Source of the DNA: Alphaproteobacteria bacterium
GTDB lineage: Bacteria > Pseudomonadota > Alphaproteobacteria > G963923945
Reading direction: 5' to 3'
Assembly: GCA_965199175.1 (NCBI GenBank)
Contig: OZ240684.1
Coordinates: 1,448,565-1,512,564, forward strand
Length of the DNA stretch: 64,000 nucleotides
Both the position numbers and the translations under genes were made by a program. The notes under the pieces were generated by a model, which saw only the letters and a program-made list of their open reading frames with translations, did no database searches and had not been told where the DNA came from. Below are positions 2,841 through 62,353 of the stretch, one piece after another (position 1 is the first letter of the stretch; every line of letters begins with the position of its first letter).

Positions 2841-2879
2841 TCTTAAAAATTATGTAGATTTCTTAAAAATACGTAGATT
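2841..2879. repeat. Tandem duplication, about 20 bp x2
   Basis: tcttaaaaattatgtagatt / tcttaaaaatacgtagatt. Confidence 0.9.
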
Positions 2880-2995
2880 GTACAGACATATGAGGGTTAA
2901 AAATATCCGGGAGTTTAAAAATACATCAATGAAAACAGGCTACACTCTCAGCTATTATTCCTGATCAACAGGATATAACCGGGTATCGTGGCTGC

Positions 2996-3025
2996 GTTGT
3001 TGCCAGTTGTGTTGTTGCCAGTTGC
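2996..3025. repeat. Tandem duplication, 15 bp x2
   Basis: gttgttgccagttgt / gttgttgccagttgc. Confidence 0.9.
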
Positions 3026-3060
3026 TTTGTCGCCATCGGCCAGAAAAGCAACCGAAAAAA

Positions 3061-3120
3061 TGACTGATGAAAAAATGACTGATGAAAAAAACCGTGCATA
3101 AAAAAACTGTGCATAAAAAA
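3061..3120. repeat. Two adjacent 15-bp x2 tandem duplications
   Basis: tgactgatgaaaaaa x2 (identical copies), then accgtgcataaaaaa / actgtgcataaaaaa. Confidence 0.95.
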
Positions 3121-3156
3121 CTGTGTATGGGAACCTTTTAGAAGGGAACATGGACG

Positions 3157-3711
3157 ATGTCCGATTCAACATCAGACTCAGATGATCCGCTTTCAGCAAG
3201 TCTTGCGGCCGGAGAACAAGGGGATGACAATTCCGGCCTCAAAAAAGTCATCCTGATCTTATCGATCTCAATCCTTCTGATTACCGGTATCATAGGCGGT
3301 CTGTGGGTGAGCGGCGTCTTCGGGGAGAGCGAAACCGCCGCCGAAACCGAAGAAGCAGGAGATGAAGCAGTTGAAGACGACACCCCGGACCGGCAACCCG
3401 CCAGCAGTGGGGTGTTTTATGATTTGCCTCAAATGCTGGTCAATCTGGCCAGCAGCGGACGCAGAGCCAGCTTTCTGAAAATCACTTTGAGCCTGGAATT
3501 GGGAGGCCCTGCAGATCTCCCTCTCATTGAGCAGGCTCTCCCCCGCATCACCGATACCCTGCAAGTCTATCTCAGGGAACTGCGCCCCGAAGACCTTAAA
3601 GGATCATCCGGCATCCATCGATTACGCGAAGAACTGCTCACCCGTCTGGATACATCGGCTGATCCGGTTGAAGTCCAGGATATCTTGTTCAAGGAGATTC
3701 TGGTACAATAA
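3157..3711 (+). CDS. fliL: Flagellar basal body-associated protein FliL
   Basis: 184 aa with a single TM helix. The C-terminal domain LPQMLVNLASSGRRASFLKITLSLE...LQVYLRELRPEDL is typical of FliL. Lies upstream of fliM. Confidence 0.85.
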   Translation: MSDSTSDSDDPLSASLAAGEQGDDNSGLKKVILILSISILLITGIIGGLWVSGVFGESETAAETEEAGDEAVEDDTPDRQPASSGVFYDLPQMLVNLASSGRRASFLKITLSLELGGPADLPLIEQALPRITDTLQVYLRELRPEDLKGSSGIHRLREELLTRLDTSADPVEVQDILFKEILVQ

Positions 3712-3818
3712 TTATGAATGTTGGCCCGGTGTTTGCTTTGTATTTGATTCCAGAGAGATGAAACAGGAATCCGGCAACTGCTTTCGGATTCCCCTGAAGA
3801 TCGGTTCCGGGAAGATTG

Positions 3819-3860
3819 TTTGGGTGAAATTTTTAAGATTTTGGGTGAATTTTTTAAGAT
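3819..3860. repeat. Tandem duplication, about 21 bp x2, in the fliL-fliM spacer
   Basis: ttgggtgaaatttttaagat / tttgggtgaattttttaagat. Confidence 0.9.
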
Positions 3861-5213: not shown

Positions 5214-5219
5214 CAGGCG

Positions 5220-6571: not shown

Positions 6572-6617
6572 CACGCTAAAGATTTGGATTTAAACACGCT
6601 AAAGATTTGGATTTAAA
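6572..6617. repeat. Tandem duplication, 23 bp x2
   Basis: cacgctaaagatttggatttaaa repeated twice. Confidence 0.95.
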
Positions 6618-6699
6618 AACGTTTAGATTAAGATGAAAAATGCTGAGGTGAGCAAATGGCAGAATAAAACATTTCAGAAATAATCAAAATCAAACAAAC

Positions 6700-6913
6700 A
6701 ATCAAAAAATAAAAGAGTAAAAGAGTAAATCAGAATTAAGAGATTCAATCAAAATTAAGAGAGTAAATTAAAATAGAAAAATAAATTAAGAAAAAATAAA
6801 TTAAGATAAGAGAACAAATTAAAATAAATAATTTAAAATAAATTAAGACAAAAATTTTACCCTGGTATAGTTTTACCTTGGTACAGTTTTACCCTAGTAT
6901 AACCCTGGTATAG
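6700..6913. repeat. AT-rich low-complexity repeat tract followed by a 16-bp unit repeated about 3.6 times
   Basis: Recurrent aaaagagtaa, aattaagaga and aaataaattaaga motifs, then ttttaccctggtatag / ttttaccttggtacag / ttttaccctagtataa / ccctggtatag (6855-6913). Confidence 0.85.
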
Positions 6914-7427: not shown

Positions 7428-7450
7428 GCCAGCTTGAACTCTGAGTTATT

Positions 7451-7489
7451 TTTTCACTGAACTATCTTTTCACTGAACTGTTTTTCACC
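7451..7489. repeat. Tandem duplication, 15-16 bp x2.5, abutting the cheZ ATG
   Basis: ttttcactgaactatc / ttttcactgaactgt / ttttcacc, followed by the ATG at 7490. Confidence 0.9.
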
Positions 7490-9666: not shown

Positions 9667-12600
9667 GCAGGAATCGTCTTCCCCTCCAGTACTTTACCGT
9701 TAAAGTGTTGGCCCGTATTTTCTTTTTTTTATTCGTTTTTATCTGTGCTTTTTCTCCCGCCTGGGGACAAGAGAAAGTCCGCGTAAAGTCCTGGGTTCAC
9801 GACAATTATGGTCGCATTGTTTTTGATTGGCCAACCCAGGTTTCCTATGCTGCGCAATTAGAAAACAACCAGCTGGTCCTGACGTTTGACCGGAAAATGT
9901 CGGCGTCTCTGGGGTCTTTGAGACGCGAACTCCCTGATTATATTGAAGCGGCCCGCCTCACCCCCGATAAACAACAAGTCGTTATAACGCTGACCCGCGA
10001 TTTTGATTACCAGACATTTGTTCATGATCGCTCTGTTATCGTTGATTTATCGGAAAAACGACGCATTGAGGTCGCTCAACCGCCCCCAGATCCATCCCCC
10101 CAGGAAGATACTCCTTCACCCCAACCGGTGGCTGAGGCTACCCAACCGTCCCCAGATCCATCCCCCCAGGAAGATACTCCTTCACCCCAACCGGTTGCCG
10201 GGGCCACCCAACCGTCCCCAGATCCATCCCCCCAGACCAGTCCTTCAACCCAGCCAGACAGCGATACAAAGACACAAAAAACAGAACCCAAAACAGGTAC
10301 CGGGCCTGAAAAACGCCCGGCTTTGCGACCAGAAAATATCGCAAAACGCCGCCCTGCCGGTGATCCCGGCAACACCCAGGGACCGGCCAAAAATCCCCCG
10401 GTCATCACGATACGTACCGGTCAGCATCCAGGCTTTAGTCGCGTGGTTTTCGATTGGAACCGCGATGTCCCTTACGAAATCAAAACAACCAGTGACAAAA
10501 CCCAGATCATTTTTCAAAGCCCGGCAACGTTCAATCTGGCAAAAGTTAAACCGATTCCTCAACTCGGCACAATCGAAAGCCAGACAAGCGGCCAAACCTC
10601 CCAAGTGAACCTTGATACTGCCCCCAAGGCCCGTTTACGTCATTTCCGGACCAACGGTAAGGTCGTTGTTGATATCCTGAGTGCTTCTACAGACAAACGT
10701 CCGTCTTCAGACAAAACGGTGGCTCAAAAAGAAGAACCGAAAGAAGAGTTGAAACCACGCCGAACCGCAGCTTCAATTACGCAAAAAAGACTGGATGGTG
10801 CCAAAAAAACAGATAAAAAAACACCCGGTGGCCCATCGGCAGATAAAACGACCTCCGCAAATGCAGCCCCAAAGAAAAAAACTGATAAATCGCGCCCCAG
10901 CCTGACCCTTGAAATATCGTATAATACAGAGAACAACCATCTGGTCCTGCGTTTTAAGACACCTCCCAATACCCTGGCGGTTGCCTATCGGCGCGCTGGC
11001 TTTGTCTGGATCGGGTTTGATCGTTCTTTCAGCCCAACTCTGGAGGCGTTCGAAAAGGTCAAGAATCCCTTCCTGAGAGAAATTCTCCTGGCTCCGATCC
11101 CTGGCTTAACCTTATTGCGCCTCGATACGCCGGAGAGCGTTTCACCCCTGGTGTTACGTGATAAATCAGAATGGCTGATTGAACTGGCCGAACAGCCACT
11201 CGGCCCGAAAGAAGCCATCAGACCAGAATCAATCATCGGAAGACCAGGCCAACCGGCAAGCATCTTTCTCCCGGAAATCGGGGACAAACGCGTGGTTCGC
11301 ATCCCTGATCCGGAAGTTGGGGATGAAATTATTCTCATCCCAACCGCTACAGTAGGACGCGGGATACAGGGAAACCGCGACTATATCCAGTTTATCCTGC
11401 CCAGAACCGCTCAAGGTGTTGTTGTGATCCCATATGCCGACAGCGTACAGGTCACCAAAGAGCAAAGTGGAATCTTCGTTGGGGACCCTGATGGTCTTTA
11501 TATATCAAGCCGCCTGGAGTCAGAATTAGGAATCGCCGCGGCTAATTCTCTCCTTGATACCACCAGCTGGCTCAAGGGTATTAAAGGATCATTCAACGAA
11601 AACAGGAAAATTCTCCTGAGAAAAATTATCGAAGCACCAGAAGAAGAACGCAACCAAATACGCTTACGTCTTGCCCAGTATTATTTAAAACATCGTATGT
11701 ACCGGGAAGCAAAAGGTCTTCTGCAATATATGGGCGAAATTGACTCAGCCTTGCTTGAAGACCCTTCCTACGTATTTTTGACTGGGGTCGCTCATTACCT
11801 TGATAGTGATTATGCCCGGGCATCTAATTATCTGGCTTCAGATACCCTGCTCAACCATCCCGAAGCGGCTTTGTGGCGGGCAGCCCTTGCCGCTCAAAAC
11901 AGAGACTGGGACAACGCCACCAAGGGATTCAACGAATACGCCTATACCATCAATTCTTATGATCCTGACATCGCTGAAAATCTTTTGATAACCGCTGCCG
12001 AAGCGGCCTTGAAAACCGGCCAGATTGATCATGTGCAAAACTACCTGGACACAATTCTTAAAAATCCGGAACTGGTCACCCAACCCGGTTATGTCCGGTA
12101 CCTTCAGGGAAAAGCCCTCGCGGCCTCAGGGGAAACAGCCGAAGCTGCTGATATCTGGAGGCGACTGGCCAGAAGCAACGACCGCAAAGCCAATGCTCTT
12201 GCCCGCGCAGAGATGATTGATTACAGGCTGAGAGAAGAAGAGATATCCCTGGATGAAGCCATCGAAGAGTATCAAGGTCTCGCTTTCTCCTGGCGTGGAG
12301 ATACATTTGAATTGACACGCCTGAAACGCCTGGCGGAACTGTATCAGCAAAATGGCAATCTGCGTCAGAGTCTCCTCACCCTCAAGGATTTGACAATCAA
12401 TTTTCTCAACCATCCGGGTATCCGGGATGTCACCCTCAAAATGAGCGAAATTTTTGCAGATATATTTCTGAGTGAAGGTGCCGAAGACCTCGACCCGATT
12501 ACTGCTTTGAGTATTTTTCAGGAATTCCGCGAATTAACCCCAGTTGGAGAAAGAGGCGATCAACTGATTGAGCAACTGATCGAACGTATGGTGACGGTTG

Positions 12601-13401: not shown

Positions 13402-14289
13402 CTAAGAACCACCGCTTGTTAAGGGAGCATTGAAACTTTCCACCAGGCTCCCGGCAACCAAATACCAGCCATCAACCAACACGAAAAAGACCAGCTTAAA
13501 GGGTAAAGAAATAATAATCGGCGGCAACATCATCATACCCATCGACATCAGAATCGATGCCACAACCATGTCAATAATCAAAAACGGCACAAATAACAGA
13601 AAGCCAATCTCGAATGCACGGCGCAACTCACTGATCATAAAAGCCGGTATCAAGACCCGGTAAGGAACATCAGCAGGTGTGTCAACCGCATCAATATCGG
13701 CGACATCCATGAACAGAGCCAGATCTTTCTGCCGGGTCTGAGCAGCCATAAAGTCATGAAAGGGACGCGCAGCCCGGTCCAGGGCCACTTCCTCGGATAT
13801 TTCTTCCTCAACCAACGGAGCCACACCATTATTATACGCAGCCTCAAAGGTCGGCAGCATGATGAACAAGGTCAGAAACAAGGAAAGGCCAATCAGAACA
13901 ACATTAGGCGGGGTTTGTTGCAGACCCAGTGCGGTACGCAAAAACGACAACACCACAACGATCCGCACGAAAGAGGTCATCATCACCAGAATTGACGGAG
14001 CCAATGTGATCACCGTCAATAAGATAAAAAATTGCAAAATCCTGCCGGTAGCACTCGGGCCATCGGAAAAATCGAGATTGATCGATTGCCCATAGGCCGG
14101 GGCAGCAATCACAATAAAAAACACCGACCCCAAAAACACTGCCCGAAAAAATACCGACCCCAAAAACACCTTCCCGGTCATTGCCAGGACAGACCGTGGC
14201 CGCCAACAGATATGCCGCCAATACATATACAGCCGGGAACAAAACCAGGAGAATACAGTCATCAGCCAGGCCATGACACCGACAATCAA
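13402..14289 (-). CDS. fliP: Flagellar type III export apparatus protein FliP (alternative start at 14181)
   Basis: LTVITLAPSILVMMTSFVRIVVVLSFLRTALGLQQTPPN... is the canonical FliP core. The longest start overlaps the fliO stop. Confidence 0.93.
   Translation of the reverse strand: MIVGVMAWLMTVFSWFCSRLYMYWRHICWRPRSVLAMTGKVFLGSVFFRAVFLGSVFFIVIAAPAYGQSINLDFSDGPSATGRILQFFILLTVITLAPSILVMMTSFVRIVVVLSFLRTALGLQQTPPNVVLIGLSLFLTLFIMLPTFEAAYNNGVAPLVEEEISEEVALDRAARPFHDFMAAQTRQKDLALFMDVADIDAVDTPADVPYRVLIPAFMISELRRAFEIGFLLFVPFLIIDMVVASILMSMGMMMLPPIIISLPFKLVFFVLVDGWYLVAGSLVESFNAPLTSGGS
14116..14175 (-). repeat. In-frame 30-bp x2 duplication in the fliP 5' region
   Basis: aaaaaacaccgaccccaaaaacactgcccg / aaaaaataccgaccccaaaaacaccttccc, encoding VFLGSVFFRA / VFLGSVFFIV. 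Confidence 0.9.
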
Positions 14290-15038: not shown

Positions 15039-15076
15039 GATAGCCTCTGATGAATGGTTTCATGATCTGAATGGTT

Positions 15077-15514
15077 TCATGATCGCTGTTCACCCAATGC
15101 CGTGTCGATGGTTGTCAATTCCGGCTCTTGTTTCTGACTGGCTTTCTCTTCTTCTCCCGAGAGAATATCAGAAGTATCCGGTTTGGAAACTGTGCCTGTT
15201 GCTTCCATCAATGTGCCGTTGGCCCGGTAAACATAAGAGAGAATTTCAGCAACAGCAGCAAACACTTCGACAGGGATTTCACTATCAATATCAAGCTGTA
15301 AAAGAATTTCGGCTAAATCGGCATCTTTGCGGACTTTGACCCCATTGGCAAAAGCAATGCCAATCAGTTGTTCAGCAAATCTTCCGGTCCCTTTGGCAAC
15401 GACACGCGGTGCTGATTCCCCACCTTGCTCATAAAAAAGAGCAACCGCTTTTTCAACATCTGAGCGGAAACGGCGGGATGCAGCGTTCGAATGTCGGGAT
15501 ATCACCACCACCAC
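15077..15514 (-). CDS. Stand-alone FlhB C-terminal-domain (EscU/YscU/HrcU-type) protein
   Basis: AVALFYEQGGESAPRVVAKGTGRFAEQLIGIAFANGVKVRKDADLAEILLQLDIDSEIPVEVFAAVAEILSYVY matches the FlhB cytoplasmic C-terminal fold without the TM domain. GTG start. Confidence 0.75.
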   Translation of the reverse strand: MVVVISRHSNAASRRFRSDVEKAVALFYEQGGESAPRVVAKGTGRFAEQLIGIAFANGVKVRKDADLAEILLQLDIDSEIPVEVFAAVAEILSYVYRANGTLMEATGTVSKPDTSDILSGEEEKASQKQEPELTTIDTALGEQRS

Positions 15515-15835: not shown

Positions 15836-15850
15836 AGAGTTTCCTTGTAA

Positions 15851-15892
15851 CCGGAATAACCAGAATAATCAGAATAATCAGAATAACCAGAG
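15851..15892. repeat. 9-bp unit x4.5 immediately upstream of csrA
   Basis: ccggaataa ccagaataa tcagaataa tcagaataa ccagagc. Confidence 0.9.
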
Positions 15893-16738: not shown

Positions 16739-17149
16739 ATGCCTGAATTATTTGACTCGATCAAAGTATCTGCATCCGGTATGCATGCGCAAGGCGAGCG
16801 GATTTTGGTGATTTCTGAAAATATCGCCAATGCCGATTCCCTGGGCACAACCCCGGGTGGTGCGCCATATCGCCGTAAAGTGATTTCTTTCCAGAATGCA
16901 CTCAATCGGGAATTGGGCATTCATGAAGTAGAGGTGAAGAATATCAGACCCGATATGTCACCCTTTGGCGAAAAATTTATGCCCTCGCATCCAGCCGCCA
17001 ATGATCAGGGCTATGTCCTTTTGCCTAACGTTAATTCTTTATTTGAAATGATGGATATGCGTCAGGCACAACGGAGCTATGAAGCCAATCTCAATGCGAT
17101 TACAATTTCCAAACGTATGATCGAACGAACGATTGATATGATACGTTAA
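16739..17149 (+). CDS. flgC: Flagellar basal-body rod protein FlgC
   Basis: 136 aa with SASGMHAQGERILVISENIANADS and NVNSLFEMMDMRQAQRSYEANL. Confidence 0.93.
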   Translation: MPELFDSIKVSASGMHAQGERILVISENIANADSLGTTPGGAPYRRKVISFQNALNRELGIHEVEVKNIRPDMSPFGEKFMPSHPAANDQGYVLLPNVNSLFEMMDMRQAQRSYEANLNAITISKRMIERTIDMIR

Positions 17150-17195
17150 AAAATCAATAATAGAAAAAACAAATGACAGAAAAAAATAAATAACC

Positions 17196-17229
17196 GAAAA
17201 AATTGAATGACTGAAAAAATTGAATGACC
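17196..17229. repeat. Tandem duplication, 17 bp x2 (flgC-fliE spacer)
   Basis: gaaaaaattgaatgact / gaaaaaattgaatgacc. Confidence 0.95.
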
Positions 17230-17287
17230 GGAATAAAGCCTCCAAAAGAAACAGCCAGGAAAACAGACCGCCAGAAAGAGAGCACTC

Positions 17288-18701: not shown

Positions 18702-18713
18702 ACCGGATCATTT

Positions 18714-18743
18714 GATTTTTCAAACCATGATTTTCTAAACCAT
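18714..18743. repeat. Tandem duplication, 15 bp x2, that includes the first two bases (AT) of the flhB start codon
   Basis: gatttttcaaaccat / gattttctaaaccat, then g. The second copy supplies the AT of the flhB ATG at 18742; the first copy creates an ATG at 18727 followed by an early stop. Confidence 0.9.
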
Positions 18744-19812
18744 GTCTGAACAAGAAGACCAATCACAAAAAACCGAAGAACCGACAGCCAAGCGTCTCAC
18801 CGAAGCGCGGGGGAAAGGCCAGGTTGCGGTCTCCCGGGAGGTCAATCACTGGTTCATCATTCTTGGGGCCACAATGCTGATTGGTTTATTTGTCCCCGGC
18901 ATGATCACAGATCTTTCACAAGTGGGGCTGATTTTTCTCGAACGGCCACATGTCATTGCCACTGATTATGCCAATCTCAGCAACCTTCTCGCTGATACCT
19001 TACGTGACAGCTTATCGGTTCTCGCCTTGCCGGTTGTTATTCTGGTTTTTCTGGCTGCGTTATCGAGCATTGTTCAACATGGTTTTTTGCTGGCTCCCGA
19101 ACGCATCAAACCGAAGCTGGAGAAAATTTCACTCATCAAAGGATTTAAACGTCTGTTCTCTCTCAGCGCATTGTTCGAATTTGCCAAAGGAATCCTCAAG
19201 ATCACGATTGTTGGCTGTGTTGCCTTCCTGATTATCTATACCCAGATTGATTCCCTTGATCTTCTCCCGCAACTCGAACTTGGGCAGGCTGTTGATACTA
19301 TTCATTTTTTATCGTCATCCATGCTGGTTGGCGTTTTGGCCGTGGTGACGGTTATTGCCGGGCTTGATTTTCTGTTCCAGCGGTTTCAGCATCTCAAACA
19401 GCTTCGTATGTCGAAACAAGAGATAAAAGAAGAGTTTAAACAGACCGAAGGGGATCCGATCATTAAAAGCCGGTTGCGTCAGATCCGTATGGAAAAAGCC
19501 AAACGCCGTATGATGGCCCAGGTTCCCGAAGCTGATGTGGTGATCACCAACCCAACCCATTATGCGGTTGCGCTCGAATATAAGCATGGGACAACAACCG
19601 CACCGATCTGTCTGGCCAAAGGCATTGATAAGGTTGCTGCGCGAATCCGCGAGATTGCCAAAGAAAACCAGATTGATATCGTGCGTAATCCGCCGTTGGC
19701 GCGGGCTCTGTATGCCGGGGTTGAAATTGGTGATGAAATCCCTGAGGAACATTATCAAGCCGTTGCTGAAATTATCAGCTATATTTACCGTATGAAGGGG
19801 AAACCATTATAA
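18742..19812 (+). CDS. flhB: Flagellar export switch protein FlhB
   Basis: 356 aa with QKTEEPTAKRLTEARGKGQVAVSRE, four TM helices and the NPTHYAVAL autocleavage site. Confidence 0.95.
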   Translation: MSEQEDQSQKTEEPTAKRLTEARGKGQVAVSREVNHWFIILGATMLIGLFVPGMITDLSQVGLIFLERPHVIATDYANLSNLLADTLRDSLSVLALPVVILVFLAALSSIVQHGFLLAPERIKPKLEKISLIKGFKRLFSLSALFEFAKGILKITIVGCVAFLIIYTQIDSLDLLPQLELGQAVDTIHFLSSSMLVGVLAVVTVIAGLDFLFQRFQHLKQLRMSKQEIKEEFKQTEGDPIIKSRLRQIRMEKAKRRMMAQVPEADVVITNPTHYAVALEYKHGTTTAPICLAKGIDKVAARIREIAKENQIDIVRNPPLARALYAGVEIGDEIPEEHYQAVAEIISYIYRMKGKPL

Positions 19813-19818
19813 AAACAT

Positions 19819-19856
19819 CCGGTTCGAGAACGTCCCGGTTCGAGAACATCCCGGCC
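19819..19856. repeat. Tandem duplication, 16 bp x2.4, downstream of flhB
   Basis: ccggttcgagaacgtc / ccggttcgagaacatc / ccggcc. Each unit contains the palindrome gttcgagaac. Confidence 0.9.
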
Positions 19857-29557: not shown

Positions 29558-29607
29558 CCACTCCGTAATTAACCGTTATTCGTAGAGATATTGGTAAAAA
29601 TCTTTAT

Positions 29608-29646
29608 ACTGAAACCGCGTACTGAAACCGCGTACTCAAACCGCGA
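29608..29646. repeat. Tandem repeat, 13 bp x3, in the ccr/ecm divergent region
   Basis: actgaaaccgcgt / actgaaaccgcgt / actcaaaccgcga. Confidence 0.95.
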
Positions 29647-29718
29647 GAACCAATGCGGAAAAATGATGATGTCGTTTTTCATGCTCAATCACTTTGTCAT
29701 ACTCAAAATTTTGTCACA

Positions 29719-29748
29719 TCCAAAACAATGTCGTCCAAAACAATGCCA
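29719..29748. repeat. Tandem duplication, 15 bp x2
   Basis: tccaaaacaatgtcg / tccaaaacaatgcca. Confidence 0.9.
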
Positions 29749-30006: not shown

Positions 30007-30033
30007 ACCAAAGCCGGTGATCCCGATCTTGCA

Positions 30034-36511: not shown

Positions 36512-36516
36512 TACCT

Positions 36517-36558
36517 AATCTGAAAAATGAGAAGAATAATCTGAAAAATGAGAGGAAT
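36517..36558. repeat. Tandem duplication, 21 bp x2, upstream of pntAA
   Basis: aatctgaaaaatgagaagaat / aatctgaaaaatgagaggaat, followed by degenerate gagaaat motifs. Confidence 0.9.
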
Positions 36559-37038
36559 GAGAAATAAAAGGAAATGAGAAAATTAAAGAATGTACATGCT
36601 GAGAAAAAACCAAAAAGAGACCGAAAATGACAGAGAAAACAAAAACACCCGATAGTGAATACCAAACATAAAATATTCTTTTTGTTGACCAACCAGATCG
36701 GACTATGCCTCATTCAAAAAACCTTGCCAACCGGTTAATCATCAAATTTTTCAGATTCTGCTCCTGGTTTTTTATTCCTGGTTTTCTGTTTCGGCTTTTG
36801 GGAAGATTCTTTTCCCGCCATCTTTTCGCTGCTCTGTCCTTTTGATATCTTTTCCTCTATATCTTTGCTGAGTATTTCAGCATGATCCGTTCCACTTATT
36901 CAGATCACGCTTATCCCATGTCCCATCCCCCATCGTCACCAACCCTCAGGGATGCCTGAAGCCTTAGCCAAACAGCCTCCGGGAATCGCCACAGCCCGGC
37001 CCCATAGAGCCGATGTGACGCAACATAGTGCTGCCCCC

Positions 37039-39614: not shown

Positions 39615-39623
39615 AGAATATAT

Positions 39624-40133: not shown

Positions 40134-40135
40134 TG

Positions 40136-46422: not shown

Positions 46423-46450
46423 CCCAAAGATAGTACACGCAACCTACGTT

Positions 46451-46480
46451 ATGTACCTAAGTTATATGTACCTAAGTTAT
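46451..46480. repeat. Perfect tandem duplication, 15 bp x2, upstream of fhcB
   Basis: atgtacctaagttat x2. Confidence 0.95.
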
Positions 46481-46565
46481 GTCATATTACGTGATGTTAA
46501 TGGACGCGACATATTTTATATTATACATATGTTTTATGTTATACCCGACTACGTAATACTTAAAT

Positions 46566-46620
46566 TCATCAATGACATACTTAAAGTCATCAATGATATA
46601 CTTAAAGTCATCAATGACGT
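46566..46620. repeat. Tandem repeat, 21 bp x2.6
   Basis: tcatcaatgacatacttaaag / tcatcaatgatatacttaaag / tcatcaatgacgt. Confidence 0.95.
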
Positions 46621-46812
46621 TATACAGAGTAAATACCAGATAACTATACGTAATAAATACAAATAAATTACGTAATAAATACTAAAAACATAAATACTAA
46701 AAACCGACGTAAACACCAAATACCAACCGTGTCACCCATACCAACAATTCGGTTCCCCAAACAGGGTGATGCCATGCTTTGTTACACAACCAAAATCATC
46801 ATCAGCTGTTCG

Positions 46813-47193
46813 TCAGTCATATTTGATATAAGCAAAGCGTTGATCCGTATTCGGGGTTCCCTCAAGAGGTCCATCCTCAGAACCCGGACGCCAACCAATC
46901 ATTTCCTCAATTTTAGCCGCCAAAGCAAAATCCTTATCGGTGATGCCTTTGGCGGCATGATTGGTCAGTTTGACCTCAACGAAAGCATAGGATGCGACAA
47001 TATCCGGATGATGCCAGGCCGCTTCGGCCAGATGCCCGACTGCATTGACCACCATCAATGTTCCTTTCCAGCTATATGTGCGATATTTACGACAGATCCA
47101 TCTCCCCTCCAGCCGCCACTCCGGCAGAGTTTGCTCAAGGCGTTGGGTAACCTCGCTATCAGAATAGGTTCGCTCCGTATTGTGTTCAGACAT
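46813..47193 (-). CDS. Pterin-4a-carbinolamine dehydratase (PCD/DCoH family)
   Basis: 126 aa with ...AVGHLAEAAWHHPDIVASYAFVEVKLTNH... (the HHPD signature) and a short C-terminal extension. Confidence 0.85.
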   Translation of the reverse strand: MSEHNTERTYSDSEVTQRLEQTLPEWRLEGRWICRKYRTYSWKGTLMVVNAVGHLAEAAWHHPDIVASYAFVEVKLTNHAAKGITDKDFALAAKIEEMIGWRPGSEDGPLEGTPNTDQRFAYIKYD

Positions 47194-47305
47194 TATTTTA
47201 TTTAACCATTATTTATTATGTTCAGACGTTATTTTATTCAGCATTTTATTCAGCATTGTGTTGAGCCATGATTTATTGTGTTGAGCCATGATGTTGAACC
47301 ATGAC
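47183..47305. repeat. Nested duplications that copy the 5' end of the PCD gene and the adjacent spacer
   Basis: tgttcagacattattttatt (contains the real start, cat at 47191-47193) is copied as tgttcagacgttattttatt at 47219. Then cagcattttatt / cagcatt, and gtgttgagccatgatttatt / gtgttgagccatgat / gttgaaccatgac. Confidence 0.85.
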
Positions 47306-48456: not shown

Positions 48457-48663
48457 TTCAGGTGATTGATGCGGCATGACAGGAGCATAGCCGGACGGTA
48501 TTCAGGCGGCATTTACGTGATAGAGCATGATTATTTATAATATAGATTATGATTTTTGTTATCAATTTTCGTATCAATCATGCTAAGAGCACTCAAATGA
48601 AAAAACCAATCAACCAAAAAATCAATCAACACAGAGCAATGATCGTTCAAGAGTTAAAATAAT

Positions 48664-48695
48664 CGTTCAATTCTTAATACGTTCAATTCTTAATA
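48664..48695. repeat. Perfect tandem duplication, 16 bp x2, upstream of mtdB
   Basis: cgttcaattcttaata x2. Confidence 0.95.
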
Positions 48696-50942: not shown

Positions 50943-50972
50943 GGTTTTTTTAGTAATGGTTTTTTTAATAAT
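50943..50972. repeat. Tandem duplication, 15 bp x2
   Basis: ggtttttttagtaat / ggtttttttaataat. Confidence 0.9.
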
Positions 50973-50994
50973 TTAATCATGGTTTTTTAAAGAT

Positions 50995-51039
50995 ACTGTC
51001 TCAGTCCCAAATGTCTCAATCTCAAATGTCTCAGTCTCA
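50995..51039. repeat. 15 bp x3 tandem repeat spanning the mch start codon
   Basis: actgtctcagtccca / aatgtctcaatctca / aatgtctcagtctca. This gives two in-frame ATGs (51011 and 51026) and the MSQSQMSQSQ N-terminus. Confidence 0.95.
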
Positions 51040-53116: not shown

Positions 53117-53158
53117 GGAAATTCATCTACGGAAATTCATCTATGGAAATTCGTCTGT
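53117..53158. repeat. Tandem repeat, 14 bp x3, upstream of the CitG-like gene
   Basis: ggaaattcatctac / ggaaattcatctat / ggaaattcgtctgt. Confidence 0.95.
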
Positions 53159-53175: not shown

Positions 53176-54153
53176 ATGACCGGACGTGACCCAACCCCAG
53201 CCAGCCTGCCTGACAAGCGGCGGCTCTCAAAATCTCAGAAGATACAATCTGAACAAGCTGCCCGGGCCTATCTCCGGGCCTGCAGTCTGGAGCTTGAAGC
53301 TCTCAAGCCCGGCAATGTCCACATCCATGCCGATGGCCACGGGATGACAGTTGCCGATTTTCGCCGGAGTGCCATGCTGACAGCACCCATTCTTACTGAT
53401 TTAAGCCAACCATGCGGGCAACGTATTCATCGCTGCGTAAGCGTGACCATGGAACAGGTTGGCTGTAATACCAATCTGGGCATTCTTCTGCTCTGTGCCC
53501 CTCTCTTAACCGCATTCTGCCGCGCCCGATCAGCCAGTGATCTTCGGGTAAAACTCAATGAGATTCTCAGCAGCTTTACCCTTGCCGACACAGCGGCTGT
53601 TTTCACGGCCATCGCCCGGGCCAATCCGGGAGGACTCGGCCATGCAGCAGAGCATGATATCCATACCCCCCCCACTGTTTGTTTACGCACCGCCATGCAT
53701 CAGGCGGCTGATCGTGACAGCATCGCCCGCCAATATGCCAATGGATTTCAGGATATTTTCCATATCGGCATTCCAGCCAGCCGCTATGCCGGGTCCCGGC
53801 ATTGGAATCCAGCCCGGTCAGCGGCATATATTTATATGACATTTCTGGCCACCTGTATCGATGGTCATGTTCTGCGTCAATGGGGATCTCAAACGGCTCA
53901 TGATCTGAGAATACAGGCACAGCAAAAGATAAACGCATTGGAATCAATGAATAATCATAAAGACTGGCCGGCATCCTGGAAAAATTTTGACCACCATCTC
54001 AAGCAACACGGGATCAATCCTGGCTCTAGTGCTGACCTCACAGTCACCACCTTGCTAACACTCTATCTTCAAGATATGTTGCAAGAAGCGTCCACATTCT
54101 TTAAACAGAGAGAATTCTTTAAACAGAGAGAATACTTTAAACAGAGGGAATAA
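53176..54153 (+). CDS. Triphosphoribosyl-dephospho-CoA synthase (CitG/MdcB)-like protein of the H4MPT island
   Basis: 325 aa with LKPGNVHIHADGHGM and NTNLGILLLCAPL, which are CitG-like. The C-terminus FFKQREFFKQREYFKQRE is encoded by an 18-bp tandem repeat. Confidence 0.75.
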   Translation: MTGRDPTPASLPDKRRLSKSQKIQSEQAARAYLRACSLELEALKPGNVHIHADGHGMTVADFRRSAMLTAPILTDLSQPCGQRIHRCVSVTMEQVGCNTNLGILLLCAPLLTAFCRARSASDLRVKLNEILSSFTLADTAAVFTAIARANPGGLGHAAEHDIHTPPTVCLRTAMHQAADRDSIARQYANGFQDIFHIGIPASRYAGSRHWNPARSAAYIYMTFLATCIDGHVLRQWGSQTAHDLRIQAQQKINALESMNNHKDWPASWKNFDHHLKQHGINPGSSADLTVTTLLTLYLQDMLQEASTFFKQREFFKQREYFKQRE

Positions 54154-54297
54154 TCCTTTAAAAAAGGGTTAGTCCTTTGGAAAAGGAGTGATCCTTTGGG
54201 GGAAAAACAATCCTTCAGGAGAGGTATGATCTCTTATAAAGAGGGAGAAGTGACCCTTTGAAAGAGGAGTAGAGTAACCTTTTGAAAGGGGAAGTCA
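54097..54297. repeat. About 10-unit array of 18-24 bp repeats with internal CCTTT..AAAGG dyads, spanning the CitG-like 3' end and the fae upstream region
   Basis: ttctttaaacagagagaa x2, tactttaaacagagggaa, then tcctttaaaaaagggttag, tcctttggaaaaggagtga, tcctttgggggaaaaacaa, tccttcaggagaggtatga, tctcttataaagagggagaagtga, ccctttgaaagaggagtagagtaa and ccttttgaaaggggaagtca. Confidence 0.9.
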
Positions 54298-59317: not shown

Positions 59318-60756
59318 GGTTCAGGGTTCGGCCCAAGCGAAGGCTTAGGCTGCCCGCCGGACTGGCGGGTATTCTTTTTTTTGGACCGGGTTGGTCCCGG
59401 GGCATCAAAACATGTTGGGTCCTTCCCGGCTGTTGCCGCTGCAACCCCCCAATTCAACGGATTGTCCTGATTATATTTTTTGCCCAGACGCCAGGCGATT
59501 TCAGCCCGCGCCAATTCAACCCCCATATAAAAAGCATGGCCGGCATCCTCCTCCAGCCCCAGCTGCGGATACAAGCCAAACGGATCATCCCCAATTTGAT
59601 GGCCATCTCTGTTCATGACATGCACACCATCCTCAGCAACCGCGATACGAAAATTGGGATCCCTGATCATGGCCGCCAATTCACTCAGTTCCCGGGATGT
59701 ATATGTATAGGGCCGCCGGTCACGCAACCCCATCAGGCCTCCGTCAATCCCGACAGGCAGACGCTGCTGGCAATGGGCATAATAAAAAAGACGCCGCGCC
59801 CGGTCTGCTTCGGCCACCGCCCGGCGACAATGAGGACTCACCTGAACCACCAGAGCAGCGGTGATCCGAAGCTCTGAGATCAGACCAAACAGCAAAGCAT
59901 TCACCCCGGTGCTATCGGCATCAGTCAATTCGGTGAGGTTGCCAACCCCCATCAAAATATCCACATCCGGTAACCGGCCACGTAGCTGGTGGTAACGCAT
60001 CAGTGAATCTGCAAAACCATAATGAATCGGATCAAGAATCGGATCAGCATAAAAAGGACGCCCGGACTCGCGGACACAGTCAATCACTCTGAACAGGGAA
60101 TCCATGTCACCGGGCTGGGCTGGAATCAGAACCGGGATCGCCTCAACTTCCTCAGCAATATGCAGATTCCCCTCATGGAGCGATAAGAGATAATCAGCAC
60201 CCGCCCGGCCCCCACGTAACAATTCAGCATCCAAAGCCGAATCAACACTCACCCGATGCCCGGCCGAGCGAAGAGCCTGCACCGCATCCTCAAGATGGGG
60301 AAAGGAAACATCAGGCAAACAGCCAAGATCAATCACATCAGCACCATCAGCAACCATCCCGGAAGCACGCTCAAGAATCTGATCAACCGATAAACGCGGT
60401 GCATCAACAATTTCAGCAAAAATCAAACAATCATGCCGCGAAAGATCAGCCGCCTGTGGCCCCATGCCGAAATAACCGGGTAAATCAATCAGATCTTCAG
60501 GTCCGCGCTCAAACGGGGCCTGGTAATGCGCACTCAGACTGTCAGTGTCCCCCCGAAACCGTCCGGGAAGCAGCACACGATCAGCCCCTCCCAAATCGTC
60601 AACCCGCCGCCGAATGAGAGATTCAGACATCAGGGCAGCAACCGAAATACCGATTTGCCGCACATGATAGTCAAAATCCGGATTCATCGACTCCAGAATA
60701 CGCCGTAGCTGTTTTTCAGCCAGTTTACCGGTCAGGAAGAGGATGCGTTCAGACAT
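59314..60756 (-). CDS. Dihydropteroate synthase-related protein (H4MPT biosynthesis)
   Basis: 480 aa with N-terminal MSERILFLTGKLAEKQL and a pterin-binding-like core (GADVIDLGC...), plus a basic Pro/Lys C-terminal tail. Confidence 0.75.
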   Translation of the reverse strand: MSERILFLTGKLAEKQLRRILESMNPDFDYHVRQIGISVAALMSESLIRRRVDDLGGADRVLLPGRFRGDTDSLSAHYQAPFERGPEDLIDLPGYFGMGPQAADLSRHDCLIFAEIVDAPRLSVDQILERASGMVADGADVIDLGCLPDVSFPHLEDAVQALRSAGHRVSVDSALDAELLRGGRAGADYLLSLHEGNLHIAEEVEAIPVLIPAQPGDMDSLFRVIDCVRESGRPFYADPILDPIHYGFADSLMRYHQLRGRLPDVDILMGVGNLTELTDADSTGVNALLFGLISELRITAALVVQVSPHCRRAVAEADRARRLFYYAHCQQRLPVGIDGGLMGLRDRRPYTYTSRELSELAAMIRDPNFRIAVAEDGVHVMNRDGHQIGDDPFGLYPQLGLEEDAGHAFYMGVELARAEIAWRLGKKYNQDNPLNWGVAAATAGKDPTCFDAPGPTRSKKKNTRQSGGQPKPSLGPNPEP

Positions 60757-61316
60757 TGCAACCGCTCCTCAACCGCCAAAACCAGCGCATCCAGATTCTC
60801 AACCAATGTCACCCTCTCAAAGGACCGGAGCTTTTGGGTGTTTTCAAGATCAATCGACCGGGGGAATAACCTGACCAGTTCCCTGGGAGCCATGCTTTCC
60901 ATCTCCGGGGCGGTGTCACAGGCAAAATAAATGCACGGGATACGGCATTTACCAGCCTGAGCAAAAACATTGGTCACCAGCGTATCTGAGATACCATACA
61001 CACATTTAGCAACAGTATTGCTGGATGCCGGGGCAACAACCAATGTGTGATATATATTTTTGTAAAATTGCCCAACCGGGGCCGCACTGGCCGTTGTATC
61101 CCGGAACAATCGTATGGTTTCAGGAAGAGCATGATGCTGTTGATACATCCGCAAAACTTCTTCTGCTGCCTTGCTTGCGAAAATATCGACATCACCAATT
61201 TTTTTCATCAACTCAATGCTTTGAGAGAAAAAATGCCCGGAGCCCGTCAGAGCCCAGGCCCAACGTTGCGGCTCAGTCATCTCAGATACCATCTCAGACA
61301 TAATATCGACTTTCAT
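60732..61316 (-). CDS. Flavoprotein-family protein (AfpA/DmrB-like, candidate dihydromethanopterin reductase)
   Basis: 194 aa with WALTGSGHFF... and TLVVAPASSNTVAKC, flavoprotein-family motifs. Context is the C1 island. The 5' end lies inside a 58-bp tandem array. Confidence 0.65.
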   Translation of the reverse strand: MKVDIMSEMVSEMTEPQRWAWALTGSGHFFSQSIELMKKIGDVDIFASKAAEEVLRMYQQHHALPETIRLFRDTTASAAPVGQFYKNIYHTLVVAPASSNTVAKCVYGISDTLVTNVFAQAGKCRIPCIYFACDTAPEMESMAPRELVRLFPRSIDLENTQKLRSFERVTLVENLDALVLAVEERLQCLNASSS

Positions 61317-61506
61317 ACCAGGAATGCGGCTTAGCCATCTCAGATACCATCTCAGACACCGTATTAACTTTCATACCAAGGGTGGGACTCGGCTGTCTCA
61401 AACACCGTCTCAGACACCGTATTAACTTTCATACCAAGGGTGGGACTCGGCTGTCTCAAACACCGTCTCAAACACCGTGTCAATTTTCATACCAAGGGTC
61501 GGAGAG
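61262..61506. repeat. 58-bp tandem array x4.2 whose first copy contains the start codon of the flavoprotein gene
   Basis: Copies end in ...ctttcatacc, with cat at 61314, 61372, 61430 and 61488 (period 58). Copies 3 and 4 are nearly identical, and copies 1 and 2 are more diverged. Each unit contains a 12-nt sub-repeat (catctcagatac/catctcagaca, or gtctcaaacacc/gtctcagacacc). Confidence 0.95.
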
Positions 61507-61598
61507 TTTCAATACTCCACACATTTCTTTCCATCACCCCGGTCAACAGAGGTGCCCTTCTGTTTTAATATCCGCTCAATCAGTATGTGCCAGTATGA

Positions 61599-62123
61599 TC
61601 ACGGATTCTCATCTTCATAAGACAACAATGTTGCCACCGGCACATCGATACGGTTGCGCCCCATCAAACCGGAAAGCTCAATCAAACAGACCACGGCTGC
61701 CGGCTCAACCCCGATCCGGCGCATCAAATTGACTGCAGCTGCCGCCGTCCCGCCGGTCGCCACCAGATCATCCAGAATAACCGCCCGATCAAATGATCCA
61801 ATGATATCGGGCTGAATTTCGATGACATCAGTCCCGTATTCAAGGTCATATGTATGGGAGATCACTTTCCCCGGCAGTTTGCCTTTTTTTCGAATCATCG
61901 CAAAGCTGAGACCCAGCCTGGCTGCCAGTGGTGCTGCCAATAAAAAGCCGCGCGATTCAATCCCGACCAAAACATCAGGATGATATCCACGCACCATTGT
62001 CGTCAACCGCTCCAGAGCTGCCTGCCAGGCCGGCGGATGCGCCAATAATGTGGCAATGTCATAAAATAAAATTCCCGGCCTGGGAAAATCCGGAACAGTC
62101 CGAATATGTTCTTTTAAATTCAT
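61599..62123 (-). CDS. apt: Adenine phosphoribosyltransferase
   Basis: 174 aa with IRTVPDFPRPGILFYDI and the PRPP motif VILDDLVATGGTA. Confidence 0.93.
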   Translation of the reverse strand: MNLKEHIRTVPDFPRPGILFYDIATLLAHPPAWQAALERLTTMVRGYHPDVLVGIESRGFLLAAPLAARLGLSFAMIRKKGKLPGKVISHTYDLEYGTDVIEIQPDIIGSFDRAVILDDLVATGGTAAAAVNLMRRIGVEPAAVVCLIELSGLMGRNRIDVPVATLLSYEDENP

Positions 62124-62307
62124 AGAAAAACGACATTCACGGAAAAGCGATTGCTCAATGTTATCAGGAATAACCGGCCGGAAACGACCAAGATAGCTGT
62201 ATGATACTCTATCTCATTAAATGATCTGTTTTTAATAAAAGTGAGTATGCTTTTTTTGAAAAACCAAATGACCTGAAAACTCAGATATCTTAAACCCGGA
62301 TGCCTGG

Positions 62308-62353
62308 TAAAATTTAAAATCTAAAATTTAAAATCGTAGTAAAATTTAAAATC
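62308..62353. repeat. AT-rich repeat taaaatttaaaatc x3 (two adjacent copies, a third after a 4-nt gap)
   Basis: taaaatttaaaatc at 62308, 62322 and 62340. Confidence 0.85.

Follow-up and report, generated by a model that had tools for sequence, protein, structure and literature searches.

Short tandem duplications in the intergenic spacers of a small alphaproteobacterial clade

The window analyzed here, a 64-kb stretch of the genome of an uncultured alphaproteobacterium (contig OZ240684.1), encodes flagella, chemotaxis, and C1 metabolism and has an ordinary coding density of 88%. Short head-to-tail arrays cover 3% of it, with a median period of 16 bp. The analysis comprised these 64 kb of the source genome and about 40 kb from each relative. 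Besides an intact recA, no replication or repair genes were found within the window. Arrays were called with TRF, with translation or folding added where named, and carry no strand unless one is given. Those of the flagellar/chemotaxis region are as follows.

2714..2775: 16/31-bp array (CCACCGGACCACAGAC) in the 839-bp flgF-fliL spacer
2841..2879: 19/20-bp array, 2 copies
2993..3035: 15-bp array, 2.9 copies
3054..3125: two adjoining 15-bp arrays, GAAAAAATGACTGAT (2.5 copies, perfect) and AAAAAAACTGTGCAT (2.8 copies), just upstream of fliL
3819..3860: 21-bp array, 2 copies, in the fliL-fliM spacer (389 bp)
6572..6621: 23-bp array, 2.2 copies
6710..6852: nested A-rich arrays with periods of 19, 15-18, and 33 bp; a higher-order duplication
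6855..6912: 16-bp array, 3-4 copies (TTTTACCCTGGTATAG), duplicating a motif kept as a single copy in the related loci L162 and L163
6939..6968: 15-bp array, 2 copies
7450..7488: 16-bp array, 2.5 copies, occupying the whole cheY-cheZ spacer
10077..10235, plus strand: in-frame 66-bp Pro-rich repeat, 2.4 copies, within a 1226-aa protein (TRF, translation)
14117..14228, minus strand: 15-bp arrays, in frame, within the FliP N-terminal (signal) region (TRF, translation)
15051..15084: perfect 17-bp array, 2 copies, separating two flagellar genes
15848..15891: 9-bp array, 4.9 copies, upstream of csrA
17148..17230: 17-bp array, 4.8 copies, with a 33/34-bp higher-order period, immediately 3' of flgC
18713..18744: 15-bp array, 2.1 copies, in the fliR-flhB spacer
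19814..19854: 16-bp array, 2.6 copies, immediately past the flhB stop codon

The open reading frame at 2449-2814, which covers the first array, is probably not a gene; it has no Pfam match, and L162 and L163 have no called gene in the orthologous spacer. The C1-metabolism region and the rest of the window contain further arrays.

29607..29645: 13-bp array, 3 copies (TACTGAAACCGCG), in a divergent spacer; a second sample has 4 copies
29693..29769: decayed 17-bp array, 3.6 copies, containing the inter-sample SNP 29733 (1 of 8)
29918..30008, plus strand: in-frame 15-bp (3.3 copies) and 12-bp (2.2 copies) arrays at the N-terminus of a methylmalonyl-CoA-mutase-like ORF, encoding KTAHA x3 and TSAD x2 (TRF, translation)
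35256..35338, minus strand: 15-bp arrays, in frame, within the C-terminal tail of PntA, which is rich in Lys and Pro (TRF, translation); the L001 ortholog has longer 15-bp arrays at the same position
36516..36592: 21-bp (2 copies) and 16-bp (2.9 copies) arrays upstream of pntA
46442..46704: five consecutive arrays (15, 18, 21, 22, and 15 bp) that together take up the fhcB-pterin dehydratase spacer, whose length is 390 bp in the window against about 128 bp (L001) and 251 bp (L161)
47179..47304: nested duplications with periods of 12, 20, 13, and about 37 bp, all from a single seed of ~20 bp
48600..48695: two 16-bp arrays
50943..51039: 15-bp array, 2 copies, then a 15-bp array, 2.9 copies, that yields three in-frame copies of the mch start codon (repeated MSQSQ; TRF, translation)
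53117..53156: 14-bp array, 2.9 copies
54096..54292: 18-bp array, 3.1 copies, forming the C-terminal FFKQRE x3 of a CitG-like ORF, then hairpin-forming 19-bp and 24-bp arrays (TRF, translation, folding); relatives have only 59-90 bp in the orthologous spacer
61267..61503, minus strand: 58-bp array, 3.9 copies, with internal 12-bp sub-repeats, duplicating the start and first 19 codons of a flavoprotein gene (TRF, translation)
62307..62375: A/T-rich array (periods 14, 7, and 8 bp) 5' of a TAXI-TRAP gene

An initial annotation, made by reading the letters of the window, had listed 27 tandem-duplication sites; TRF recovers 26 of them, at the same coordinates or a few bases away, and the site listed at 47183 lies in a spacer with a nested duplication, of which it is an older, more diverged section. 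The excess of short tandem duplications in spacers is far beyond chance. At a score of at least 40, the 7.4 kb of intergenic DNA holds 35 arrays, against 0.54 +/- 0.74 in dinucleotide-preserving shuffles, and arrays take up 21-25% of spacer bases (0.1-0.9% in shuffles); of the 27 spacers that reach 100 bp, 16 have at least one array. Coding DNA at the same threshold has 17 arrays, with 1.46 expected from shuffles. For arrays scoring at least 50, spacers have 4.4 per kb and coding DNA 0.14, a 31-fold enrichment that bears out the annotation's view that genes are spared apart from in-frame cases: 15 of the 17 coding arrays have periods divisible by three (TRF). The in-frame periods are 12, 15, 18, or 66 bp, and these arrays translate to peptide repeats located in protein termini or linkers.

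Logan contigs, which are assembled separately for each run, provided a check (four public runs from two samples, word depth 4.6-46). They reproduce all 64 kb and every array with no indel except one real unit gain, so the assembly artefact that the annotation had named as a possible undoing of its reading is excluded. The contigs break at the Pro-rich repeat at 10077..10235. Sample S2 (run X2) differs from the window by 8 SNPs in 64 kb and by exactly one extra 13-bp unit at 29607, the single locus at which copy number changed between samples; this gain of a whole unit over so small a distance agrees with the proposal that the process is ongoing. The arrays are thus real, and their copy number is still shifting.

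Intergenic counts by period are 2 at 14, 8 at 15, and 6 at 16 bp (TRF), and a strict scan for periods of 13-24 bp found 17 arrays in the 64-kb window, including seven at 15 and three at 16 bp. The same scan found 18 arrays in 2.52 Mb of comparison loci, falling monotonically with period, so that young, near-perfect 13-24 bp duplications are ~37 times denser in the window than in the comparison loci (2.5 Mb). Periods of 6-11 bp occur at an ordinary rate (3 observed, about 3.9 expected; strict scan). TRF gives a period of exactly 15 bp for at least 12 arrays (starting at 2993, 3054, 3085, 6939, 14117, 18713, 29918, 35256, 46450, 46675, 50943, and 50997), where the annotation had counted at least nine. 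The excess near 15 bp stands, but not as a sharp spike: the mode is 15-16 bp, and the count at 15 is raised further by in-frame coding arrays, 7 of 13 of which have that period, whereas in the background 15 bp is outnumbered by each of 12, 18, and 21 bp.

Mean best similarity between units is 0.546, compared with 0.543 for shuffled units; unit sequences are unrelated, and a REP or MITE family, already rejected in the annotation, can therefore be set aside. Arrays are richer in A+T than other spacer DNA (72% versus 56%), and 14 of 32 units contain a tract of at least five A or five T (5.2 expected, P about 0.001). Among 18 clean young arrays, nine have no microhomology at the junction and eight have at least 2 nt. 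Identities range from 100% down to about 68%, and nested, back-to-back arrays of every age between 100% and about 70% identity uphold the idea of local duplication that recurs. Selection for a given length or structure of the spacers, also suggested, gains no support: general secondary structure was not found (folding median z = 0, z < -2 in 3 of 32 arrays), nor was helical phasing of the arrays.

Only three members of the lineage were found among 5.8 billion proteins searched. The two relatives of the window are about 80% identical to it in nucleotide sequence, and both have expanded flagellar-cluster spacers carrying unrelated arrays of the same size class. Clade genomes are 2.07-2.10 Mb, with a G+C content of 50-54% (58-62% in the next relatives). 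Spacer arrays number 4.7 per kb in the window, 2.7 in L163, 2.55 in L162, and 0.5-1.0 in outgroups, the last being an imprecise baseline drawn from only 5.2 kb of spacer. Density is at background level in the C1 cluster of species C (L161), so the excess is patchy. It is lineage-specific, as had been surmised: density is raised in the window and its two known relatives, but the next relatives and the other proteobacterial loci (2.5 Mb) show no such rise.

The annotation's claim of long spacers holds in part. The fliL-fliM spacer is indeed 389 bp (25, 77, and 9 bp in three outgroups, where spacers are short and arrays few), and the spacers compared with outgroups, all in the flagellar cluster, are unusually long; overall coding density, by contrast, is ordinary. 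C1-cluster spacers are longer than in two sister species; most of the extra length is made up by arrays, which sit in segments lacking an alignable counterpart there. Because the arrays are real, still changing, and common to the window and its two closest relatives, spacers in this small clade apparently lengthen through duplication, which sets it apart from the other proteobacterial DNA sampled for comparison.

Several other explanations were weighed. Duplications might arise at a normal rate and accumulate when spacer insertions are purged poorly, through weak selection or reduced deletion bias. This accords with the few arrays of similar period in outgroup spacers (0.5-1 per kb), with a share of microhomology resembling that in bacteria generally, with the small genomes and lowered G+C of the clade, and with array ages covering a long period. 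Weaker purging would not, however, readily explain a peak at 15-16 bp with no excess at 6-11 bp against a monotonically declining background, nor the lead of 15 bp among in-frame coding arrays; coding density is normal and the genes appear intact, so general decay is not evident. Retention alone is therefore unlikely. A function for the arrays themselves (promoter or UTR spacing, contingency-type switching, binding of nucleoid or regulatory proteins, or structured RNA or DNA) is improbable. Many arrays adjoin start or stop codons, one copies a motif conserved in relatives, the polymorphic array sits in a divergent promoter region, and hairpins are formed by those at 54153-54292; yet the units are unrelated, so a single protein could not recognize them all, and the array segments have no alignable counterpart in sister species. 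Their periods are also out of helical phase (mode 15-16 bp, not 10-11 or 21 bp), their median folding z-score is 0, they decay by substitution like neutral DNA, and coding DNA is struck by the same process, filtered by reading frame.

Some mobile elements generate target duplications whose sizes partly overlap those of the units seen here, and the arrays are intergenic, as expected of a dispersed mobile family or of excision footprints. Such an origin is contradicted by units without a common consensus, by 2-5 copies and nested orders in place of exactly two copies, by periods from 9 to 33 bp in the window, and by a polymorphism that consists of one whole unit gained inside an array; no transposase gene was found near arrays in the window, and we regard this origin as very improbable. 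An artefact of assembly or sequencing, or a pattern that low-complexity AT-rich DNA produces by chance, has in its favor only the prior plausibility that attaches to metagenome-assembled genomes. It is refuted, leaving a negligible probability, by the matching Logan contigs, by copies diverged through substitutions, by the same pattern in related contigs of another assembly, and by the approximately 65-fold scarcity of arrays in dinucleotide shuffles.

The reading we favor, with a probability of roughly 0.78, is that this clade in particular is prone to generate or retain short tandem duplications, on which slippage and a selective filter then act, the arrays being mutation products with no function of their own. 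Stretches of 12-24 bp, mostly 15-16 bp, would be duplicated head-to-tail repeatedly at arbitrary sites, with a preference for AT-rich sequence containing an A-tract. About half of the young duplications end in 1-7 nt of microhomology, consistent with microhomology-mediated tandem duplication or with a nascent strand or flap that slips and realigns while DNA is replicated or repaired. Once two copies exist, slipped-strand mispairing could gain or lose whole units and duplicate duplicates, yielding nested arrays, which point substitutions would then erode. Selection would purge nearly all genic events, leaving the in-frame survivors (12, 15, 18, and 66 bp) in termini and linkers, while duplications tolerated in spacers would make these grow.

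Our leading guess at an enzymatic cause is altered processing of displaced 5' flaps, in lagging-strand maturation or nick translation (the 5'-nuclease of Pol I, a FEN function); the length of the persisting flap would set unit size near 15 nt. A 7-10-fold rise in tandem duplications is reported for rad27 (FEN1) mutants (bioRxiv 10.64898/2026.02.28.708716). The genome is streamlined (2.07 Mb), and weak purifying selection on the length of its spacers probably contributes. A microhomology-independent route, such as fill-in and joining of staggered breaks, may account for the half of young arrays without microhomology, a share (9 of 18) that resembles the 50-60% lacking microhomology reported for reference genomes (bioRxiv 10.64898/2026.02.28.708716). 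GC-rich microhomology is reported to favor tandem duplication (PMC8639346), and the AT-rich arrays here run counter to that preference.

The other proteobacterial DNA that was sampled yielded no comparable densities. REP/BIME and MITE elements, cyanobacterial STRR heptamers, and Beggiatoaceae TAACTGA repeats (PMC4679880) are likewise abundant and confined to intergenic DNA, but each is one sequence genome-wide, whereas every array in the window has its own unit. MLVA-type VNTRs or minisatellites such as Wolbachia VNTR-105 and VNTR-141 (PMC3287509) share intergenic repeats whose copy number differs between close strains. They comprise few loci per genome, with 40-140 bp units often in families, whereas short, unrelated arrays, singly or several together, are present in most window spacers of at least 100 bp. 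Mycobacterial MIRU are further loci of the MLVA type. Plant mitochondrial spacers (PMC7643612) also contain short, locus-specific tandem duplications in AT-rich sequence, often with microhomology and nested repeats. Organelle genomes differ from the window in replication and repair machinery. Chloroplast non-coding DNA likewise has tandem-duplication indels in its spacers.

The general model of tandem-repeat origin, microhomology-mediated duplication plus slipped-strand mispairing (PMC8639346; bioRxiv 10.64898/2026.02.28.708716), resembles the present case in head-to-tail duplication of single-copy DNA followed by expansion, in short microhomology at about half of junctions, in an in-frame genic bias, and in whole-unit copy changes. 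The window differs in its far higher spacer density than comparison bacteria, in a length spectrum that has its maximum at 15-16 bp and does not simply fall off as units get longer, and in the AT-richness of its arrays. The closest precedent, as relayed in PMC10710844 and PMC3287509 from Frutos et al. 2006, is Ehrlichia ruminantium, an alphaproteobacterium whose non-coding DNA is described there as rich in locus-specific tandem repeats that alter spacer length by expansion and contraction. Its units are much longer by those accounts (mean period 139 bp, 6.3% of the genome in repeats, about 64% coding density, against a median of 16 bp, 3%, and 88% in the window), and identical TRF settings give 1.3 rows per 10 kb there and 6.9 in the window. 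E. ruminantium is an obligate intracellular pathogen, whereas the window encodes flagella, chemotaxis, and C1 metabolism.

Head-to-tail tandem duplications are abundant in the window and lie mostly between genes. TRF called arrays at 26 of the 27 sites listed in the initial annotation, and the 27th, 47183, represents the older portion of a nested duplication. With intergenic DNA defined by a curated gene list (11.7% of the window), 33 of the 41 arrays with a TRF score of at least 50 are intergenic; the suspected enrichment in spacers is 31-fold (4.4 arrays per kb versus 0.14 per kb in genes). At scores of at least 40 the spacers hold 35 arrays, versus 0.54 in dinucleotide-preserving shuffles of the same spacers; coverage is 21–25% versus at most 1% in the shuffles, and of the 27 spacers that reach 100 bp, 16 contain one or more arrays. 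Copies that lie head to tail with nothing between them, far above chance, place the arrays in the tandem-duplication/slippage (MTD/VNTR) type.

Genes contain 17 arrays (1.46 expected from shuffles). Periods are multiples of three in 15 of them (12 bp five times, 15 bp seven times, 18 bp, and 66 bp), in keeping with the earlier view that coding DNA is spared apart from in-frame cases. The coding arrays encode peptide repeats located at protein termini or linkers.

Peptide repeats encoded by coding arrays
Mutase, N-terminus: KTAHA (three copies) and TSAD (two copies)
FliP: repeat in the signal region
mch product, start: MSQSQ
PntA, tail: KKPAP
CitG-like protein, C-terminus: FFKQRE (three copies)

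Individual sites in or near genes
10077-10235: in-frame, Pro/Ser-rich 66-bp repeat (2.4 copies) in a 1226-aa protein encoded after motB-like genes; Logan assemblies break there, and orthologs of the protein give faint AMIN-domain matches
46729-47205: the longest ORF (+ strand, 158 aa) is spurious; the true gene, as in species C locus L161, encodes pterin-4a-carbinolamine dehydratase (− strand, 46813-47193)
50997-51039: 15-bp array ATGTCTCAGTCnCAA with an ATG in each copy, giving mch three start codons in frame and an N-terminus of MSQSQ repeats
61267-61503 (− strand): 58-bp unit (3.9 copies) upstream of and overlapping a flavoprotein (PF02441) gene (60732-61316); the gene's start codon and opening 19 codons fall inside the unit and follow a conserved GGT, and each unit carries 12-bp sub-repeats; because 58 is not a multiple of three, the upstream copies form out-of-frame upstream ORFs

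The window was drawn from a 2,069,867-bp contig and has a G+C content of 50.5% (51.8% in coding DNA, 41.2% in spacers) and a coding density of 88%. It encodes a flagellar and chemotaxis cluster (flgF/G, fliL, fliM, cheY, cheZ, motB-like, fliP, fliQ, fliR, flhB, and csrA), cckA, recA, alaS, ethylmalonyl-type genes, pntAB, and a complete tetrahydromethanopterin/fhc C1-transfer cluster. The best named protein matches, in Azospirillum, Niveispirillum, Magnetospirillum, and unnamed Rhodospirillales (about 70–75% identity for FliM), indicate an uncultured alphaproteobacterium related to the Rhodospirillales. The only replication or repair gene within the 64-kb window is an intact recA, with no polA and no xni. 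Rfam and tRNA scans of the window gave no match; the arrays are therefore not known RNA genes. A three-gene insert looks like a mobile or defence-type cassette.

38535-40519: genes for a Beta_protein (PF14350), a Peptidase_M78/IrrE-like protein, and a 127-aa ORF with no Pfam match, adjoining an N6/N4 DNA methyltransferase; absent at the orthologous positions, which hold 552 bp in L001 (species B) and one unrelated 232-aa ORF in L161

Unit length was compared by a strict scan that accepts near-perfect arrays with two or more copies and is equally sensitive at all periods of 10 bp or more.

Strict-scan array counts by period
Window (64 kb): 6–11 bp, 3; 12 bp, 4; 13 bp, 1; 14 bp, 2; 15 bp, 7; 16 bp, 3; 17 bp, 1; 18 bp, 1; 21 bp, 1; 23 bp, 1
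Comparison proteobacterial loci (2.52 Mb, 159 loci): 6 bp, 42; 9 bp, 60; 12 bp, 51; 13 bp, 7; 14 bp, 3; 15 bp, 3; 16 bp, 0; 17 bp, 1; 18 bp, 3; 21 bp, 1

Counts in the comparison loci fall monotonically with length. Periods of 6–11 bp occur at ordinary frequency in the window, and those of 13–24 bp are about 37 times denser (17 in 64 kb versus 18 in 2.52 Mb). Among its in-frame coding arrays 7 of 13 have a 15-bp period; in the background 12, 18, and 21 bp each outnumber 15 bp. The preference for exactly 15 bp noted in the initial annotation survives as a real peak at 15–16 bp in spacers; a sharp spike at 15 bp is rejected (14 bp, two arrays; 15 bp, eight; 16 bp, six).

The units are mutually unrelated, as first described, and do not form a dispersed family of the REP/MITE type: their best similarity, independent of rotation and strand, is 0.546, versus 0.543 for shuffled units. 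Array DNA is 72% A+T (A alone 42%), versus 56% in the remaining spacer DNA. Tracts of at least five A or five T occur in 14 of 32 spacer units (5.2 expected, P ~0.001), whereas in coding arrays the excess is no more than a trend (3 of 16 versus 0.97 expected, P = 0.07); a link between A-tracts and arrays is only partly supported. Folding is unremarkable (median z = 0), and with z below −2 in only 3 of 32 arrays, hairpin-driven slippage is rejected as a general cause. One site differs from most arrays in this respect, and its repeats may serve as a structured leader or as terminators in tandem.

54153-54292: arrays with periods of 19 and 24 bp, located between the CitG-like gene and fae and forming strong hairpins (z = −2.8 and −1.9)

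Identity between copies is continuous, from 100% (at least six arrays) to about 68%, and arrays often abut or are nested (as at 3054/3085, 6710-6912, 17148-17230, 46442-46704, and 47179-47304), which indicates repeated rounds of duplication and bears out the recurrent local process proposed at the outset. Terminal microhomology was scored in 18 clean young arrays, a small sample in which some remainders are perhaps decayed partial copies: nine have none, nine have at least 1 nt, and eight at least 2 nt (chance for any, 25%). The share resembles that of duplications in reference genomes, 50–60% of which lack microhomology (bioRxiv 10.64898/2026.02.28.708716).

Logan contigs, assembled independently for each of four public runs from two samples (word depth 4.6–46), span all 64 kb and reproduce the window, with breaks solely at the 66-bp and 58-bp repeats; together with the shuffle controls they exclude assembly artefact or chance as the source of the arrays. 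Three runs of sample S1 (X1, X3, and X4) do not differ from the window, and X2, the run of sample S2, shows eight SNPs and one indel, an extra 13-bp unit TACTGAAACCGCG that takes the array at 29607-29645 from three to four copies. Whole-unit copy-number difference between close strains, a mark of the MTD/VNTR type, thus occurs at one locus, all other arrays being identical in both samples. This single gain agrees with the earlier suggestion of an ongoing process, and one unit gained per eight SNPs indicates that copy number shifts within the time that a few substitutions take to accumulate. Of the eight SNPs, two lie inside spacer repeats (29733, in the 17-bp array 29693-29769, and 50902, in the 10-bp repeat 50893-50911), yet only 12% of the window is spacer DNA.

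Among 5.8 billion proteins searched, only two further members of the lineage turned up. Species B is a circular 2.10-Mb MAG (OZ000551.1; loci L001 and L163), of which we found no mention in the literature; species C consists of contigs of 45.7 and 66 kb (loci L161 and L162). Genes are 79–82% identical among the three genomes, and gene order is syntenic. Both sister species (about 81% mutual identity) come from the same ENA metagenome assembly, ERZ22157276, so related members of a rare clade co-occur in one sample. A scan of JGI metagenomes found nothing nearer than 67% FhcA identity and served as background only. Loci were compared by arrays per kb of called intergenic DNA, since the GC-rich outgroups have many in-frame coding arrays in the flagellar region and raw counts discriminate poorly.

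Spacer arrays (TRF score of at least 40) per kb of intergenic DNA, with spacer coverage
Window: 4.7; 22–23%
L163 (species B, flagellar cluster): 2.7; 10.6%
L162 (species C, flagellar cluster): 2.55; 10.3%
L001 (species B, C1 cluster): about 1.8 (hand estimate)
L161 (species C, C1 cluster): 0.54; 1.5%
Outgroups L164, L165, and L166 (flagellar cluster): 0.5–1.0; 1.3–2.8%

Spacer lengths (bp): window / species B / species C; outgroups L164 / L165 / L166
fliL–fliM: 389 / 246 / 321; 25 / 77 / 9
Upstream of cheY: 574 / 751 / 543; 125 / 188 / 125

These densities support the lineage specificity first suspected, although the C1 cluster of species C reaches only 0.54. Array periods in species B and C are 11–20 bp. 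The long spacers singled out by the initial annotation, such as the 389 bp between fliL and fliM, are likewise a feature of the clade in the flagellar cluster. Most of the extra spacer length in the window consists of arrays, which sit in segments with no alignable counterpart in the sister species. Alignment of orthologous spacers recovered no single-copy state that preceded duplication, the spacers being too diverged at about 80% genic identity, save for one motif upstream of cheY, a probable regulatory element multiplied in the window's lineage. The divergent flgF–fliL spacer is 839 bp long if, as is probable, the ORF within it is not a gene (612–796 bp in relatives, 293–475 bp in outgroups).

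6855-6912: 16-bp array TTTTACCCTGGTATAG, aligning with the single-copy block ATTTACCTGTnGATCA upstream of cheY, conserved in both sisters (L163, ~12800-12850; L162, ~12700-12750)
2449-2814: 121-aa ORF with no Pfam match; no orthologous gene was called in the flgF–fliL spacers of L162 and L163 save an unsupported 44-aa ORF in L162

A mutational origin of the arrays is well supported. Tandem duplications of about 15 bp would arise frequently at arbitrary, preferentially AT-rich sites, expand and contract by slippage-type events, and then decay by substitution, with a strong selective filter in genes. It is conceivable that mutation proceeds at an ordinary rate and that insertions in spacers are merely purged less efficiently; this is unlikely, as it fits poorly with the peaked length spectrum, which argues instead for a changed mutational input. 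Function, or selection for structure or phasing, is more improbable still. Local effects are possible at the duplicated conserved motif (6855-6912), the triplicated start codons (50997), and the four-fold gene start (61267-61503). As a general account function lacks support, since the units are unrelated and the median folding z is 0; selection on spacer structure, raised in the initial annotation, finds neither general secondary structure nor helical phasing, and curvature is rejected because the periods are out of helical phase.

A bolder reading, at a probability of roughly 0.3, is that the clade has inherited an alteration of its replication or repair by which duplications of preferentially about 15 nt would arise at a high rate. 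It would then be a natural insertion-biased lineage with a readable mutational signature, whose spacers grow against the usual deletion bias of bacteria. The alteration might lie in a weakened removal of displaced lagging-strand flaps or in fill-in and joining of staggered nicks. Loss of the Rad27 flap endonuclease in yeast raises tandem duplications 7–10-fold (bioRxiv 10.64898/2026.02.28.708716), and by analogy the leading hypothesis is altered processing of 5′ flaps, with a typical flap of about 15 nt. The alternative, which would suit the half of the arrays without microhomology, is fill-in and joining of staggered breaks, as in the ‘patch-mediated’ model (PMC8639346).

A fifth of the window's spacer DNA is recognisably derived from recent local duplication. 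Bacterial genomes are generally thought to shed non-functional DNA through deletion bias; this clade runs the opposite way, its flagellar-operon spacers having gone from 9–77 bp (outgroups) to 250–390 bp. Should the cause prove to be a specific alteration of flap processing or break repair, the clade would offer a natural experiment on what sets indel bias and the birth rates of tandem repeats in bacteria, with the 15-nt mode as a clue to how large the intermediate is. The arrays also create new N- and C-terminal peptide repeats, and by copying start codons and promoter motifs they provide raw material for novel regulation and novel proteins; they would be excellent strain-typing markers for an uncultured group.

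The observation in the initial annotation is real and its interpretation essentially correct overall, and comparison with known systems sets the arrays apart. The REP/BIME, ERIC, MITE, STRR, and TAACTGA families each have one consensus, whereas the window's units are no more alike than shuffled ones; nor do its arrays fold like the palindromic or hairpin units of such families. Iterons and regulator-binding repeats share one motif, usually at a phase of about 10.5 or 21 bp, unlike unrelated units with a 15–16 bp mode. Target-site duplications have two copies of a fixed length typical of a given element, and contingency loci have expression-switching units of 1–8 bp in promoters or 5′ coding regions; the window's arrays have 2–5 copies, periods of 9–33 bp, and nesting, with units of 12–24 bp. 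Unrelated units, 2–5 copies, nesting, and whole-unit gain exclude both transposon footprints and a family of dispersed repeats.

Among known systems the nearest parallel is Ehrlichia ruminantium with its variable intergenic repeats, whose tandem-repeat content was the highest then reported for bacteria (PMC3287509); the general mechanism, tandem duplication followed by slippage, is known. Rerun with the TRF settings of Table 4 of that study, the window gave 6.9 rows per 10 kb covering 2.96% of its sequence, the median period being 16 bp; as a 64-kb sample it may not represent the genome. The table lists 0.19 rows per 10 kb for E. coli K-12; for E. ruminantium it gives 1.33 rows, with 6.3% of the genome covered and periods averaging 139 bp. 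In both organisms the arrays are concentrated in non-coding DNA and vary in copy number (at one locus here). E. ruminantium differs in its long units and in its very low coding density, about 64% (PMC10710844). The window stands apart by the 15–16 bp mode, the density of loci, and their presence in a flagellated, methylotrophy-capable host with normal coding density.
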